From: an uncultured virus (IMG/VR IMGVR_UViG_3300049139_000197)
Taxonomy: Duplodnaviria > Heunggongvirae > Uroviricota > Caudoviricetes
DNA: 64,000 nt
IMG/VR virus record: IMGVR_UViG_3300049139_000197
Direction: 5' to 3' (one strand)
Below, one piece after another: positions 1,698 through 43,055 of the stretch. Position 1 is the stretch's first letter. Every line of letters starts with the position of its first letter. The notes under the pieces are model-generated. The model was given only the letters and a program-made list of their open reading frames with translations. It was not told the origin of the DNA and did no database searches. The translations under genes were made by a program, and so were the position numbers.

Positions 1698-2456
1698 CTA
1701 GGAGGTGAAGTCGTACTCCAGCACGTACTTCGAGGAGCTCATCGTCATCTCGTTGATCTCGACGACCTGGCCCTGCTCATCGACAGCCGTGCGGGCCACG
1801 AGAATCACGGGCGTGGCGGGCGGAAGCCGCAAGGCTTGGGCCTCGGACGGCATCGGCATGCGGACTCGGATCTCTTCACGGAACCGGGCCGGCTTGTAGC
1901 CCAACTCTGCAAGGCGCGCGTAGGTTCCGCCTGGACCCGTATCGGGCTCAGTGATCCGAGACCCAGCAACCAGGCTGGCCGGCAGGTACGAGACTGCCCG
2001 ATTGACCGGCTCCCCATCGACGACAAAGGTCCGACTGCGTCGCCAAACGCGAGCCCCTTCGGGGAGTCCCATAGCAACGGCGATTCGCTGCGGCACGTCC
2101 ACCTCGACCACCTCGAGGTCCACCGTCTCCAGTGGTCGATCCTCGATGTCGGCTGCCCAAATCGACTTGCCACTGCCCCATTGGCTTTGTGAGAGCCGAG
2201 AGACGGCATTTCGCCTGATGGGCCGGAACAACCGGACGTAGATCCCAGATCCCCTGCGGGGCTCCGTCAAACCTTCATCGCGCAAGACGGCCAGCGCTTG
2301 CCTAGCCGTGTTGCGCGCTACGCCGTAGTCGCTCATGAGCTGGTTCTCGCCAGGGATCTTTGCCCCGGGCGGGAACTCGCCCGATTCGATGGCGCGCCGC
2401 AGTTCGTCCGCGATCTGCTGGTATCGCGGACGCGCGGGCTGCGGCTCCGTGGGCAA
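1698..2456 (-). CDS. GntR/HutC-family transcriptional regulator (KorSA-like, UTRA domain)
   Basis: PRYQQIADELRRAI..G..PGAKIPGENQL...YGVARNTARQAL..L..EGL..RRGSG HTH plus a UTRA-like C-terminus. Confidence 0.92.
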   Translation of the reverse strand: MPTEPQPARPRYQQIADELRRAIESGEFPPGAKIPGENQLMSDYGVARNTARQALAVLRDEGLTEPRRGSGIYVRLFRPIRRNAVSRLSQSQWGSGKSIWAADIEDRPLETVDLEVVEVDVPQRIAVAMGLPEGARVWRRSRTFVVDGEPVNRAVSYLPASLVAGSRITEPDTGPGGTYARLAELGYKPARFREEIRVRMPMPSEAQALRLPPATPVILVARTAVDEQGQVVEINEMTMSSSKYVLEYDFTS

Positions 2457-2557
2457 AGGTCCTCCTCGGACGTGGGTGCGGTTCTCTAGACAACAACGCT
2501 ATCGCTGTCTTGGCGTTGGCTCAGGTCGGGGTTCCACCGGAAGCAGGGGTGATAACT

Positions 2558-2568
2558 TCTCTATAGAA
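2558..2568. promoter_or_regulatory. operator-like TCTCTATAGAA copy upstream of the GntR gene
   Basis: Identical to the 1583 and 1601 repeats. Confidence 0.6.
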
Positions 2569-2901
2569 CTGTATCCTGAGGGTCAGGATCAAGTACCCAG
2601 CACTCGGGAAGGCGTCGAGGCGAGATCATGGCCGAGTGGGACTCCAATCCTTGATCGCCTACACGTACGACAGAGATCAGTTAGCACCTGACGGCAAGGA
2701 GCATGCGGATGCGTAGCCCGCCGATAAGGCGGGCGGCCGGCCGGTTCACCACAAACCGCCGACCGCCCTTTCGGCCGCTGACCTGCGAAGTCGCGCGGCC
2801 TTGACCGACCAACCCATACCAGGAAGGCAGTCACAGGTGACTCTACTTGTTTGCGATGCTCTCGCGCTGCCTCCGGTTCTTCGGACCCGGGGAGCAGCAC
2901 G

Positions 2902-3198
2902 TTGAAGAAACCCGACCCGAGGACGGTCGACGCCATCCCCCCAGTCGTCACCTTCGCTACTGGCGCCGAGCTCCTCGTACGACTCGGCAAGGCGAAGAAC
3001 ATGACCCGGGAGGGCGTCCGCCGTCTGGCCAAGCATCCCGACTGGCCGTTCGGCCCGGACCGCCCGTACCCGTACTGGCCGTTGGCCAACGCGGAGGCGA
3101 TGGAGACCGGCCCGTTCCTGAAGTTCGTCGACGACCATCCGATCGTCGGCCGCGGGCCGGACAAGGCGCCGCGCCGCGGCAACACGAGCACGTCGTAA
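2902..3198 (+). CDS. hypothetical protein, possibly DNA-binding
   Basis: TTG start after GGGGAG; GC3-rich; start uncertain. Confidence 0.6.
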   Translation: MKKPDPRTVDAIPPVVTFATGAELLVRLGKAKNMTREGVRRLAKHPDWPFGPDRPYPYWPLANAEAMETGPFLKFVDDHPIVGRGPDKAPRRGNTSTS

Positions 3199-3431
3199 TG
3201 GTCACCGGGCCCGAGATCGCAGCCTCGGTGTCCCGGCGCGCGGAACGGCCGGCCCGTGAGGAGTTCGCAGCTTCTCCAGGCCGGCCGTTCAGGCAAGTCA
3301 CAGCGGGTGTCAGCCCGCTGCATCAGAAGTCCCAACTCGCGAGAGCAGGTACCCGTCGTGTTTAGGGTAGCCGTACCACTCAGCCTTACCGCAAGTAGCC
3401 TCCGCATGATCCTCCGCACGGAGGCCAAGGC

Positions 3432-11712: not shown

Positions 11713-12786
11713 CTATGCCGCCGCGGTCCCGGTAGGTCTCGGTAAGGCCTCCGGTGCGCTGTCGTCGACCGTGCGGTCCGGGGACAAGGTGTATTGGTGG
11801 ATCAGCTCGTTCAGTGTGCGCACCCCCCACCGGGCTTTCAGCACCGCGATCTCCTCCTCCAGCTTCCGCTTCGACATCCCCAGCTTGCGGGCCGTCGCTG
11901 CCTGCGACTCTCCCGCACACAGGTAGCGCATGATGCCCCGCTGCTGCCGGTCCGTACGCACCCCGTCCGGACCGGTCACCGTGTCCACCCCGCCCCGTGT
12001 ACGGAGTTCCCCCGCCCACGGCTGCGCCCACTGCCACGACGTCTCAAACCCCTTCGCCAGCACCGCGACCACGGCCGGGTCTTTCACCAGCCACGCCGCG
12101 TGCGGCAACGAGCCGGCCACGATGTGATCCGATATGAACGCATACTCCCGGTCCACGATGACCATGCGTTCGAAGTCCCCCACCAGCGTCGCGTACCGGG
12201 CAGGCCGTCCCGTGGTGCGGGTCGACATGGTGCGCGCGTACTCCGCCGTCAAGGCATGGTCCCGCACCGTGTCCCGGTAGAGGGTGCGTATCTCCACCCC
12301 CCGGTCCAGTGCGGCACTGTCGCGGGCTATCGCCATCTCGAGGAGCTCCCGCTTACGCGGCCCGCCGGGCTGCGCGGCGAGGATCTCCCTGCGGGCATCG
12401 CCGATGACGTCCTGGAGGCGGGCGTTCACCGTCTCCGGGTCGGACAGGTACACGCTCGCCGCGCCCGCCCGCAGCTGCACCTGCCGGTACTCGCGGATCA
12501 GGTCACGGGACAGGTCCGGCATGCTGGCGACGAGGTCGATACGGCGGCGTGCTTCCTCAAGTTCGAGGGTCACCTTGGCGCGCAGGGCCTGCTGCGGGTC
12601 GCGGGCCACCGGGCGGTGTTCATCGCTGATGAGGCCCCAGTGCAGCAATTCCGTACGGGCATTGGGATGGTCGGCTTGCATTTGGTCGGCAAGGTCCCAT
12701 TCCTGTCGGGCAATTGCCCCGTACAAGCGGGTTGCTGCGGGGGACAAAGGCCCGTCGCTGTCACTCTCGGCGAAAACCGTGGCCAA
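11713..12786 (-). CDS. LuxR-type HTH transcriptional regulator with TrmB-like central sensor domain
   Basis: LDRGVEIRTLY...RMVIVDREYAF...FETSWQWAQP core plus C-terminal GESQAATARKLGMSKRKLEEEIAVLK HTH, typical of Streptomyces TrmB/LuxR regulators. Confidence 0.85.
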   Translation of the reverse strand: MATVFAESDSDGPLSPAATRLYGAIARQEWDLADQMQADHPNARTELLHWGLISDEHRPVARDPQQALRAKVTLELEEARRRIDLVASMPDLSRDLIREYRQVQLRAGAASVYLSDPETVNARLQDVIGDARREILAAQPGGPRKRELLEMAIARDSAALDRGVEIRTLYRDTVRDHALTAEYARTMSTRTTGRPARYATLVGDFERMVIVDREYAFISDHIVAGSLPHAAWLVKDPAVVAVLAKGFETSWQWAQPWAGELRTRGGVDTVTGPDGVRTDRQQRGIMRYLCAGESQAATARKLGMSKRKLEEEIAVLKARWGVRTLNELIHQYTLSPDRTVDDSAPEALPRPTGTAAA

Positions 12787-13062
12787 CGCTTATCCCTTCG
12801 ACACCACACCATAGATCAACTGCGGGTTCCCGCACCGCGCACACCCGCACCCACCAGCCGTTGAATACCCCGCCACGCTACGGCAGATTTGCCGTGGGGC
12901 GTCCCCCGAAGCTCGTACACCAGACCCTCCCCCCAAGCCGCACGCGTCTACTGCCAGAACACGCGTACAGCGAAAGGGGGTTCGCAGCAGGGTCCGACTA
13001 CGACAACCGGGTCAGACGCCCCGTTATCGTTCTCATAAACGAATGAAAGGGGACCGCCGACC

Positions 13063-13269
13063 GTGAACCGACCACTACGGGGAATCCTCGCCGGCCTCGC
13101 CCTCGCCACCGCCGCGGCCGCCGGAACACTCACCACCAACACCCTCAGCGCCCCACCCGACACCGCCTGGGGCGCCTCCGACAACAGCCACGACACCGCC
13201 TGGGGAACACCCCCCGTCGACGGCACCAGCATCCCGTCCGTCACCCCGCTCGACACCGCCTGGGGCTGA
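13063..13269 (+). CDS. secreted precursor peptide with three DTAWG repeats
   Basis: GAAAGGGG RBS; basic then hydrophobic signal peptide; DTAWG x3, the last at the C-terminus. Confidence 0.8.
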   Translation: MNRPLRGILAGLALATAAAAGTLTTNTLSAPPDTAWGASDNSHDTAWGTPPVDGTSIPSVTPLDTAWG

Positions 13270-13372
13270 CCACCCCACCCGTGAGCCGGCCCGGCAGGCG
13301 TGCCCCCAGCACCCCGCCGGGCCTCCTTTTGCCCGGGGGAACGTTCGGCCGGAACCGCGGGACGGTAGAGAC

Positions 13373-13651
13373 ATGGCCCGATACCGCAAGAAGCCCGTAG
13401 AGATCGACGCCGTCCGCGTCACGGACACCCTCAAGGCAGCCAAGCACGCCTGGGACGAACTCCCCCACTGGATCACCCAGGCCTACGACAACGGAACCAT
13501 CCTCTTCCTCGACGACGCCGTCTCCATCAGCACCCTCGAAGGTCAGATGCGCGGCGACCGCGACGACTGGATCGTGCGAGGAGTCCAAGGCGAGCTGTAC
13601 CCGGTGAAGCCCGACATCTTCGAAGCCACATACGAGCCCGCTTCTGCGTAA
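13373..13651 (+). CDS. conserved phage protein (PGDYG-like)
   Basis: YRKKPVEIDA...ISTLEGQM...DWIVRGVQGELYPVKPDIFEATYE. Confidence 0.85.
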   Translation: MARYRKKPVEIDAVRVTDTLKAAKHAWDELPHWITQAYDNGTILFLDDAVSISTLEGQMRGDRDDWIVRGVQGELYPVKPDIFEATYEPASA

Positions 13652-13891: not shown

Positions 13892-14233
13892 TCACCCCTC
13901 CAGGAACCCCAGCTCCGCATCCGGCCGGCAGTGCCCACACGCGGCCACCCCCTCCGACAACGCCCGCAGCGCTGCGGCCCGGTCCACGCCCTTCGCCCTC
14001 TTCCCCGCCATGTGGCACTCCCCGACGTGTACGGCGATCGGCAGGGCATCCCGGTTCAGCCCGTAGTCCAGTACCCACTCCGGCGCCGGCGGCCTGCGCT
14101 CCTCACCCGTGCGCTTCTCCGCCAGGCGACGCTCCTCCTCGGCGATCCAGCGGCGGGTCCGCTCGAGGTCGGCGGCCTGGACGCGTTCCAGGAAGCGCAG
14201 CATTTCGAGACGGGACGGCGGACGATCGTTCAC
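13892..14233 (-). CDS. DUF6233-like protein
   Basis: VHVGECHMAG...ALSEGVAACGHCRPDAELG motif. Confidence 0.75.
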   Translation of the reverse strand: MNDRPPSRLEMLRFLERVQAADLERTRRWIAEEERRLAEKRTGEERRPPAPEWVLDYGLNRDALPIAVHVGECHMAGKRAKGVDRAAALRALSEGVAACGHCRPDAELGFLEG

Positions 14234-14241
14234 GTGTTCGA
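14226..14241 (-). promoter_or_regulatory. LexA (SOS) box
   Basis: TCGAAC-ACGT-GAACGA fits the actinobacterial TCGAAC-N4-GNNCGA consensus; adjacent TAGACT -10 element. Confidence 0.7.
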
Positions 14242-14350
14242 GTCTACGGACACACAAAAAGAGCCCGCCACCTGCACGAAGCAGATGACGGGCCACAACC
14301 CCATCGCCAAGCGGTAGCCCCCCTCGATGACGGACCACCCACGCTACGCC

Positions 14351-14995
14351 TCACCCCACATACGGGGGAAGCACCCCAGCAACACGGGCAGCCAGTGCCG
14401 CAGCCCTCGCCGGATCCCTCCCATCAGGCGCGGCCGCCAGTGTCGGCACCAGCCAGTCCGGGCCCAGCACCCACACCGGACCCGACCACGCATCCGCACG
14501 CGCCTCCAGCCGGCCGCCCGGGATCGGGGAGCCGTGCACCACCAGCAACGGCCACACCGACCCCGCTGGCACCCCCACGGCCTGGGCGACACGGGACGCG
14601 TACCGGGCCACGGCCTCTATTTGCCCGTGCCGGTCCTCCGCCCCGCAGTGCACACGACCCCGCAAGAGAACGGTCTGCCGCTGGGCGTGCCAGCGTTTCG
14701 TGTCCAGCACCACCACTGCCGTGCCGCACGGGGAGACGAGGACGTGGTCGAGGTTGGCCCTCGAGCCGGGTAACGCCCGGTCGTGGAACACCCGCCAGCC
14801 CTGGACCTCGAGCGCGCCAAGCATCCCAGCAGTGACGGCCTCCGCCTCGGCGCCGAGGCTCCAGCGGGCCGCCACAGCCTCCCTGCGCCGCGCCCCGGCA
14901 TCCAGGCCCAGCCAGGCCAGGACACGCCACCACAGGCCCTCACGAGGCGCACGAAGCCGTGCAGCCTGACGAGCCGCCGAGTTGTCCGCGGTCAC
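14351..14995 (-). CDS. NERD nuclease-related domain protein
   Basis: GAEAE...GWRVFHDRALPGSRANLDHVLV.P...VVLDTKRW. Confidence 0.85.
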   Translation of the reverse strand: MTADNSAARQAARLRAPREGLWWRVLAWLGLDAGARRREAVAARWSLGAEAEAVTAGMLGALEVQGWRVFHDRALPGSRANLDHVLVSPCGTAVVVLDTKRWHAQRQTVLLRGRVHCGAEDRHGQIEAVARYASRVAQAVGVPAGSVWPLLVVHGSPIPGGRLEARADAWSGPVWVLGPDWLVPTLAAAPDGRDPARAAALAARVAGVLPPYVG

Positions 14996-42656: not shown

Positions 42657-43055
42657 ATGAAGCTGACGGCGAAGCAGACCACCACCAAGACCCTGATCGA
42701 CCTGTACCGCAGCATTGACCGCCAGCAGGTCGTGACCCTCACATACCGCGATGCCGACGGGACCGAGACCATCCGCACCGTGGAGCCCTGGTCGCTGCGC
42801 ACCACCAAGTCCGGCCGCATCCAGCTCCGCGCCGGCTGCCGCCTCCGCGGCGACGCCCGCTCCTTCTACGTCGACCAGGTCGTCTCCTACACGACCCACC
42901 GGATCGGCTTCGTCCTGGAGCAGCCGGAGGCAACGACCCCCGCCGGACGCGGCATCGTGGTCCGCAGCGAAAGCCAGCTCATCGCCCGCGAACTCGGCCG
43001 CGACTACCTCCCCCGCACCGCCGTCACCCGCTCCACCACCGCACTCGCCGCCTAG
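42657..43055 (+). CDS. stand-alone WYL domain protein
   Basis: SIDRQQVVTLTYRDADG.ETIRTVEPW.L...L.A.C.LRGDARSFYVDQV. Confidence 0.8.
   Translation: MKLTAKQTTTKTLIDLYRSIDRQQVVTLTYRDADGTETIRTVEPWSLRTTKSGRIQLRAGCRLRGDARSFYVDQVVSYTTHRIGFVLEQPEATTPAGRGIVVRSESQLIARELGRDYLPRTAVTRSTTALAA

Follow-up and report, generated by a model that had tools for sequence, protein, structure and literature searches.

On a stretch of 64,000 nucleotides from the uncultured virus IMGVR_UViG_3300049139_000197 (IMG/VR), in the following called the window, a gene for a putative regulator and a gene for a small, presumably secreted peptide precursor lie head-to-head. The regulator gene (11713-12786, minus strand) has a TTG start and codes for 357 amino acids, the precursor gene (13063-13269, plus strand) has a GTG start and codes for 68 amino acids, and the gap between them (12787-13062) measures 276 bp. 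Both open reading frames (ORFs) have a G+C content at third codon positions (GC3) of the coding type, 0.85 for the regulator and 0.86 for the peptide. The window as a whole has a G+C content of 68.8% and encodes a tape measure protein, tail proteins, a holin, an endolysin, a single-strand annealing protein and two C5 methyltransferases, and also ThyX, a tyrosine recombinase, ParA, a WhiB-like protein and a GntR/UTRA regulator. Its source is both a temperate phage and a plasmid, namely a Streptomyces phage-plasmid of roughly 90 kb. Homologues of the regulator sit on contigs and plasmids of 88-93 kb, for example on pSAM1 of Streptomyces ambofaciens ATCC 23877, which PMC8410849 gives as a circular plasmid of ~89 kb. 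A first-pass annotation of the window had already assumed an actinobacterial phage-plasmid, and ParA, the recombinase, the tail and lysis genes and the plasmid-borne relatives agree with this.

In the precursor, a Shine-Dalgarno-like AAAGGGGA run is found 9 nt upstream of the GTG start. The N-terminal 30 residues (13063-13152, plus strand), as read by eye, resemble a Sec signal peptide, with two arginines in a basic n-region, a hydrophobic core of about 16 residues that is rich in Ala, Leu, Gly and Thr, and a following TLSA, and this arrangement is kept in the alignment of the homologues. The remainder contains the unit DTAWG three times on the plus strand, at 13159-13173 (residues 33-37), at 13192-13206 (residues 44-48) and at 13252-13266 (residues 64-68), the last one being directly followed by the stop codon. 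The 14-base word GACACCGCCTGGGG has exact copies in the 64-kb window only at 13159, 13192 and 13252, with a chance expectation of 0.13, and three matches were reached in none of 100 shuffles. The first-pass annotation had described just this anatomy, a 68-residue ORF with a ribosome-binding site, three DTAWG copies with the last at the exact C-terminus, and a 357-residue regulator in head-to-head orientation across about 275 bp, and it holds in every detail.

A protein collection contains 16 homologues of the peptide, including an "exported protein" of pSAM1. When they are aligned, conservation is seen in the signal region and in the D-T-x-W-G units, the spacers vary in sequence and length, and in all 17 aligned peptides the D, T, W and G of the C-terminal unit are unchanged. 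The motif copies, within a precursor as well as between precursors, differ synonymously (Ala as GCC or GCA, Gly as GGC, GGA, GGT or GGG, Thr as ACC, ACG or ACT), and it is therefore the peptide and not the DNA that is under selection. The identical DNA of the three copies in the window is not itself the constrained feature. A tblastn search with the peptide against phages gave no match, and the sole match in a blastn search of the region against phages was to an unrelated downstream gene.

The regulator has matches in Pfam only below the cut-off (TrmB C-domain, E 1.5e-3; HTH_28, E 0.027), and in NCBIfam it weakly matches the C-terminus of the autoinducer-binding LuxR model TIGR03541 (E 0.014). 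An AlphaFold2 model built on 85 sequences (mean predicted local distance difference test score, pLDDT, 84.5; predicted template modelling score, pTM, 0.51) proposes a winged helix (residues ~16-61), a long helix of 43 residues (64-106), an alpha/beta domain resembling that of the phospholipase D (PLD) family (111-253) and, after a disordered linker, a four-helix helix-turn-helix (HTH) domain of the LuxR type (280-339). For the first three parts, Foldseek finds TrmBL2 (5bpi, E 2.5e-11), TrmB (3qph, E 1.4e-8) and Nuc of the PLD family (1byr, E 5.6e-7). The model thereby contains the winged helix, the coiled coil and the PLD-like domain that define the N-terminal part of TrmB proteins, and with the helices of 280-339 also the C-terminal four-helix domain of LuxR/GerE proteins. 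The sugar-binding barrel of TrmB is absent, as past residue 253 the model shows the linker and the four-helix HTH domain and no beta barrel. A pattern search of the 357 residues found no catalytic HKD motif (HxK(x)4D), and neither in Pfam nor in NCBIfam did the regulator match a tetratricopeptide repeat (TPR) family. Chromosomal paralogues are recognized somewhat better; GerE (PF00196) lies above the cut-off in the four that were scanned (27.1-38.1 bits versus 23.5), and TrmB (PF01978) at or near the cut-off (25.5-25.7 bits versus 25.6). As modelled, the regulator is a one-component protein in which a non-catalytic PLD-like middle domain is flanked by two DNA-binding domains, and not an RRNPP receptor. 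The model and the Foldseek matches hence back the earlier annotation, which had proposed a TrmB-like regulator with a C-terminal LuxR-type HTH and a receptor outside the RRNPP group. A complex prediction with the regulator and peptide residues 31-68, run without controls, resulted in ipSAE values of 0.02 and 0.01, which count neither for nor against binding.

The regulator belongs to a large family. Among 8000 candidates scored, 270 were homologues at E<=1e-3, and at 50% identity the family comprises 1055 clusters at E<=1e-3, 426 at E<=1e-10 and 27 at E<=1e-30. At E<=1e-10, three Streptomycetaceae genomes have 11, 12 and 16 matches, the majority of which, with some exceptions, extend over nearly the whole query.

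The pairing of regulator and peptide is conserved among close relatives. In all 11 orthologous loci that were gathered with a regulator alignment from genomes and viral contigs (43-88% identity), a divergent upstream ORF starts with a signal-like segment and contains the D-T-x-W-G unit two or three times, the final copy being C-terminal. Of 35 metagenome loci, 17 belong to the phage-plasmid clade and have at least ~480 nt of upstream DNA, and 16 of these contain a complete peptide gene; in the remaining one (L114), a poly-proline artefact of the assembly cuts the gene behind its second unit. The same arrangement exists in five inspected plasmid loci, including pSAM1 (identical with viral locus L081), with DTAWG, DTTWG or DSAWG as the unit. 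Variants in the clade are DTAWG, DTGWG, DSGWG, DTTWG, DTWWG and DTHWG, and the last unit of L110 is DTWQG. On the linear plasmids L093 (1092-1361, minus strand) and L094 (1115-1492, minus strand), the upstream ORF ends with DSAWGC and a signal peptide is not evident; on both, a gene for a DUF4344 metallopeptidase lies just downstream of the regulator gene.

Also much more distant relatives have such a partner. The temperate Streptomyces phage Chymera (L089, NC_073457; region 2122-3397) encodes the regulator gp29, 29% identical, and divergently the 59-residue gp30, which contains DPGWG twice, once right after a predicted AQA cleavage site and once at the C-terminus. Both genes adjoin those of the integrase gp32 and the immunity repressor gp33. 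In two further viral contigs, DSTWF is found twice. Chromosomal paralogues with 26-35% identity were collected at 74 loci from Streptomyces, Kitasatospora, Actinacidiphila, Streptacidiphilus, Streptosporangium, Actinocrinis and others, and 52 of these loci have a peptide partner, 47 of them detected by an automatic filter for a signal-like small ORF in the upstream-divergent zone that ends with W plus one or two residues, and five by eye (L019, L020, L044, L067, L078). Their units are DAGWQ (repeated in tandem up to four times, with a linker of the VTPA type), DMGWQ, DLGWQ, GAGWQ, DMIWQ, DITWGP, DVTWGH, DVTWGP and DLTWGP, and the pairing persists down to ~25% regulator identity. As a chance control, the same loose filter was applied to 87 loci; 60 have a match in the 1.6-kb upstream-divergent zone, and 37 matches occur elsewhere, nearly all visibly non-genic and one being a true peptide further off. 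From these counts, the enrichment in the expected zone can be estimated to be ~15-fold per strand-Mb. The unit is C-terminal in all cases, with at most one residue beyond the five-residue unit (DITWGP, DTAWGS), and 56 of 60 have an Asp at the third position ahead of the Trp. The search for signal-like small ORFs with C-terminal D-x-x-W units beside homologues, which the first-pass annotation had proposed as a check, therefore turned out in its favour, and the lack of a conserved peptide neighbour that it had named as a refutation was not observed. At the level of comparative sequence, this conserved linkage proves a functional coupling, and it is silent on which partner acts on which.

Two individual loci may be mentioned here. 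One paralogue is linked to a new precursor that consists of four DPGW[H/S] units (L136:2041-2256, minus strand), and at L077 (1773-2566, 5025-6659) a DVTWGH module lies between two lanthipeptide-like small ORFs and a tryptophan halogenase gene, which may be a coincidence or a hint at a modification of the Trp.

The chromosomal cassettes often have a third component. As detected with a hidden Markov model (HMM), 52 of the 74 chromosomal loci contain a gene for a protein of ~105 residues between the regulator and peptide genes, for example at L017:2802-3110 and L058:3235-3543 (both minus strand), the protein starting with MYLVH; one more weak match of this model (L057, E 2.8e-5) lies elsewhere on the other strand. 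Neither the window nor any of the phage-plasmid loci searched contains this gene. Its product belongs to no Pfam or NCBIfam family and is predicted to be a generic ferredoxin-like sandwich (pLDDT 87.9) that has no specific structural relative (best Foldseek E 2e-3), and matches in the Atlas are only unnamed actinobacterial clusters.

A quick maximum-likelihood tree of 94 regulators splits a mobile-element clade (20 rows) from a chromosomal clade (74 rows), and the motif classes track the regulator clades, a relation that the first-pass annotation had proposed to test. Shared ancestry explains much of this match, so that the tree demonstrates co-inheritance and not yet co-evolution. At a finer scale, closely related phage-plasmids differ at motif position 3, which changes between A, G, W, T and H, DTWWG (L005, L006) is interleaved with DTAWG (L081, L004) in the tree, and single precursors may hold both A and G versions. 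In 27 related sequences, compared with no control for phylogeny, regulator residue 151 (window ~12334-12336), a position within helix 146-161 in the PLD-like domain, changes with the motif class; it is K with DTWWG, R with DTTWG and E with DTHWG, and in the DT[A/G]WG class it varies, with a majority of hydrophobic or small residues (A, G, I, L, M, V; also Q and T). This relation between residue 151 and the motif class can be taken as a lead only.

In the phage-plasmid clade, the divergent control region between the two genes (12787-13062) is even more conserved than the flanking genes, as seen in an alignment of 22 loci, and has several invariant blocks, among them GCTGCGA, CTGGCAG and TACG.GC..CGGGGGACGCCC. 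Just upstream of the ribosome-binding site of the regulator gene, the alignment contains two adjacent 14-bp palindromes TGCG-N6-CGCA (12821-12849, minus strand); in the window, 12821-12834 fits the pattern, and unit 1 of the two has one mismatch. These palindromes are candidate operators, and operator-like patterns including TGCG-N6-CGCA are not found above chance elsewhere in the window. An invariant 8-mer, GACGCCCC in regulator sense (12896-12903), forms the left arm of a distant inverted repeat, and its likewise invariant partner (13015-13022) adjoins the likely promoter of the peptide gene. The two 8-mers, 111 nt apart, are 100% complementary in a repeat search and RNAalifold proposes their pairing; as these blocks never vary, such a long-range pairing says nothing on structure. 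A 34-residue ORF in this region (12816-12920, minus strand) was rejected, since according to the alignment its start is out of frame in L002 and L006.

A hairpin of 56 nt in regulator sense (12927-12982, minus strand) has an invariant apical loop with CTGGCAG, and its stems vary with compensatory changes. It is the minimum free energy fold in 19 of 20 sequences, with z-scores from -0.1 to -4.3 (window: -4.32), and it folds much worse on the opposite strand because many of its pairs are G-U. A covariance model built from two sequences, which replaced a MAFFT alignment with stems out of register, detects the hairpin in 26 of 29 sources (E<=0.04), and every match lies on the regulator-sense strand. 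In the resulting alignment, 88.6% of the cells pair and 14 of the 17 pairs have compensatory double changes; the 57 double-change cells compare with 18 +/- 3.9 in shuffled alignments (none of 500 as high) and with at most 15 when partners are slid, a margin that is large even if it is considered that the alignment was fitted to the structure and hence favours it. The wider search gave no match in five chromosomal loci, in L085 and L108, or in the more distant plasmid loci L093-L095, and matches in Chymera and in the viral contig L086 are at chance level only (E 0.5 and 0.95). Rfam has no family for the hairpin or the intergenic region, the two chance-level matches both being inside the regulator ORF. 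The intergenic region may represent a new structured RNA or a densely packed operator region, and the hairpin could act as RNA, either in a leader of the regulator mRNA or as a small RNA of its own, or else be a structure of single-stranded DNA or a protein site. The conserved control region and its hairpin with compensatory changes are new in this analysis. The DAGWQ codons of the chromosomal precursors L017, L034 and L058 read GGCTGGCAG and thus contain CTGGCAG as well, which is probably a coincidental agreement with the hairpin loop (window 12951-12957).

On the other side of the peptide gene, a G+C-rich stem-loop (13288-13331, plus strand) is followed by TCCTTTTG and is a possible terminator of a monocistronic peptide transcript; its fold is weak (z only -1.24), and a scan for promoter and terminator consensus sequences in which it was included called nothing. 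The sequencing runs found for the window comprise 17 DNA entries from soil metagenomes and none of RNA, and in the searched supplements of PMC8410849 neither coordinates nor locus tags led to usable expression values for the pSAM1 pair. Further downstream, there are genes for a PGDYG-like small protein (phrog_419, 13373-13651), a DUF6233 protein (13892-14338) and a NERD nuclease-related protein (14351-14995). None of these, nor the GntR/UTRA regulator gene (1698-2456) or the gene of a WYL-domain protein (42657-43055), is obviously linked to the regulator and peptide genes.

The two genes can be read as a receptor-propeptide signalling module that would be arbitrium-like in its logic and built from unrelated parts, and this reading has about an even chance of being correct. 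The gene anatomy, the fold, the conserved linkage, the selection on the motif at the protein level and the conserved control region with its hairpin support it. By analogy, the precursors match pro-pheromones in the exact C-terminal position of the unit, in the existence of single- and multi-unit precursors, in the unconstrained spacers, and in the Chymera unit that comes right after the signal cleavage site. Also the modelled sensor-type domain between two DNA-binding domains, which has no HKD motif, counts for signalling. We infer a course of events that begins with export and processing and leads over uptake and binding to an output, possibly one in the lysis-lysogeny decision. The 68-residue precursor would be exported via the Sec pathway and its signal peptide removed, and extracellular proteases would cut the pro-region into short Trp peptides based on the D-T-A-W-G unit, the C-terminal unit needing one cut. 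The peptides would accumulate with the density of cells that carry the element, would be taken up presumably by an oligopeptide permease, and could then bind to the non-catalytic PLD-like domain of the dimeric TrmB/LuxR-type regulator. Such a binding might shift the occupancy of the conserved sites in the 276-bp divergent control region by the regulator and thereby alter the transcription of the regulator gene, of the peptide gene, and probably of a structured RNA from the control region, and the output would be a decision of the element, for example between induction and maintenance.

Several observations speak against this signalling module. In the window, there is no transporter or protease gene linked to it, and no recognisable lysis-lysogeny genes adjoin it. 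In two genomes, a Trp-peptide partner was found beside the regulator paralogues in only 3 of 22 regions, one or two per genome and one of them the precursor with DPGW[H/S] units, and the tree contains an 11-member chromosomal clade that has no peptide. Given the third gene of the chromosomal loci, two parts may not suffice for the ancestral mechanism. In the motif, the D, the W and the last residue are almost fixed even between widely diverged members, and A and G versions coexist in one precursor, which means that the diversification of specificity is much weaker than in arbitrium or Rap-Phr systems. Finally, signal peptidase I disfavours a Pro right after the cleavage site, and this is what the likeliest site of the precursor has (LSA|PP).

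The main rival is a regulated product that acts externally. In this case the regulator would control the peptide gene and sense some other input, and the peptide would be a secreted Trp-rich effector that acts, for example, on the envelope, hyphal development, neighbouring cells or phage adsorption. Divergent pairs of a transcription factor and its target are common, the control region has operator-like palindromes, and most paralogues of the family have no peptide neighbour, which suggests that the family senses other inputs; the nearly invariant motif is moreover what would be expected for a fixed external target. However, position 3 varies among close relatives, the mature region is too short and of too low complexity for a folded effector, and the architecture is that of a pro-pheromone, with a short unit that is repeated between unconserved spacers, is always C-terminal and exists also in single-unit versions. 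An effector is a serious but rather unlikely explanation.

Less probable again, and on the whole quite improbable, is that the precursor gives rise to a modified Trp peptide comparable to ComX or to ribosomally synthesised and post-translationally modified peptides (RiPPs), which would be sensed at the membrane or be bioactive, with the regulator only switching the precursor on. An invariant Trp near the C-terminus is known from ComX, precursors with multiple cores are typical of RiPPs, and the tryptophan halogenase and lanthipeptide-like ORFs at L077 would fit. On the other hand, Sec-type leaders are unusual in RiPP precursors, the genes around the module differ from locus to locus, and among the ORFs of the window neither Pfam nor PHROGs detects a modifying enzyme, a prenyltransferase or a histidine kinase. 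That the genes are unrelated neighbours, or that the small ORF is not real, is strongly disfavoured and would be very surprising. The ORF is indeed short and rich in Ala, Thr, Pro and Gly like many spurious ORFs in DNA of high G+C content, but its GC3 of 0.86, 16 homologues with motif-specific conservation, the synonymous variation inside the motifs, and the linkage across phages, plasmids and chromosomes to ~25% identity all speak against this.

If the signalling module exists, arbitrium-like decision making would extend to actinophages and phage-plasmids, a new regulatory layer would have been found in the main antibiotic-producing genus, and orthogonal peptide-responsive switches would become available. 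Tractable carriers are pSAM1 of S. ambofaciens ATCC 23877, with the genes SAM23877_RS36290 and RS36295, and Chymera, a phage of S. venezuelae that has the module in its lysogeny region. A wider generalization is tentative and somewhat doubtful: Streptomyces and its relatives may share a phylum-specific peptide "language" with a new receptor class, composed of a TrmB/PLD-like sensor and a LuxR-type HTH, in which chromosomes, plasmids, phage-plasmids and true phages have the same module. The D-x-x-W peptides could then let mobile elements count their own carriers, or eavesdrop on the cassettes of the host, to choose between dormancy and spread, with an output via the structured RNA of the control region and position 3 as the dialect residue.

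Among the known systems, ComX of Bacillus also gives short peptides from the C-terminus, in which the Trp is invariant and the residues around it vary. It has no Sec signal, needs the prenyltransferase ComQ and is sensed by the kinase ComP, and neither a ComQ-like prenyltransferase nor a ComP-like kinase was found among the ORFs of the window. The regulator itself is most similar to archaeal TrmB and TrmBL2, which are the best structural matches and share the winged helix, the long dimerisation helix and the PLD-like domain, whereas the C-terminal sugar-binding barrel of TrmB is replaced by a LuxR-type HTH in the modelled protein; to our knowledge, no peptide ligand is known for TrmB proteins. 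The RRNPP systems (Rap-Phr, PlcR-PapR, NprR-NprX, Rgg-SHP) likewise are two-gene cassettes of a receptor and a propeptide on chromosomes, plasmids and phages, and some Phr precursors contain several tandem copies of a pentapeptide, but the regulator described here has no TPR domain and is related to these receptors neither in sequence nor in fold.

In logic, the closest system is arbitrium (AimR-AimP-AimX) of SPbeta-like Bacillus phages, in which a receptor gene is accompanied by a Sec-exported propeptide whose active part is C-terminal (described in part in PMC13220667 and PMC12472986). In common are a temperate mobile element, a putative DNA-binding receptor whose gene adjoins that of a small, apparently secreted propeptide, and, in architecture, the C-terminal unit; the Chymera pair lies beside an integrase and a repressor, and the conserved structured element next to the pair in the phage-plasmid clade loosely recalls aimX. 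In contrast to arbitrium, the predicted receptor is TrmB/PLD-like with two HTH domains instead of TPR, the genes are divergent and not in tandem, the peptide has a repeated unit that centres on an invariant Trp, the motif varies little, the host belongs to the Actinomycetota, and related cassettes are mostly chromosomal. As the TPR receptor domain is absent, the module is by membership neither an arbitrium nor an RRNPP system.

Literature searches by motif strings (DAGWQ, DTAWG, DTGWG, DMGWQ, ADAGWQ, DTWWG) and by topic found no paper on such a module. RRNPP systems are described in Firmicutes, and according to a large RRNPP survey (PMC10075063), signalling in Actinomycetota typically uses small molecules. 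Peptide-based communication between cells and between phages is known essentially from Firmicutes, and a Streptomyces module of the kind proposed here would, if true, add a new receptor fold to it.

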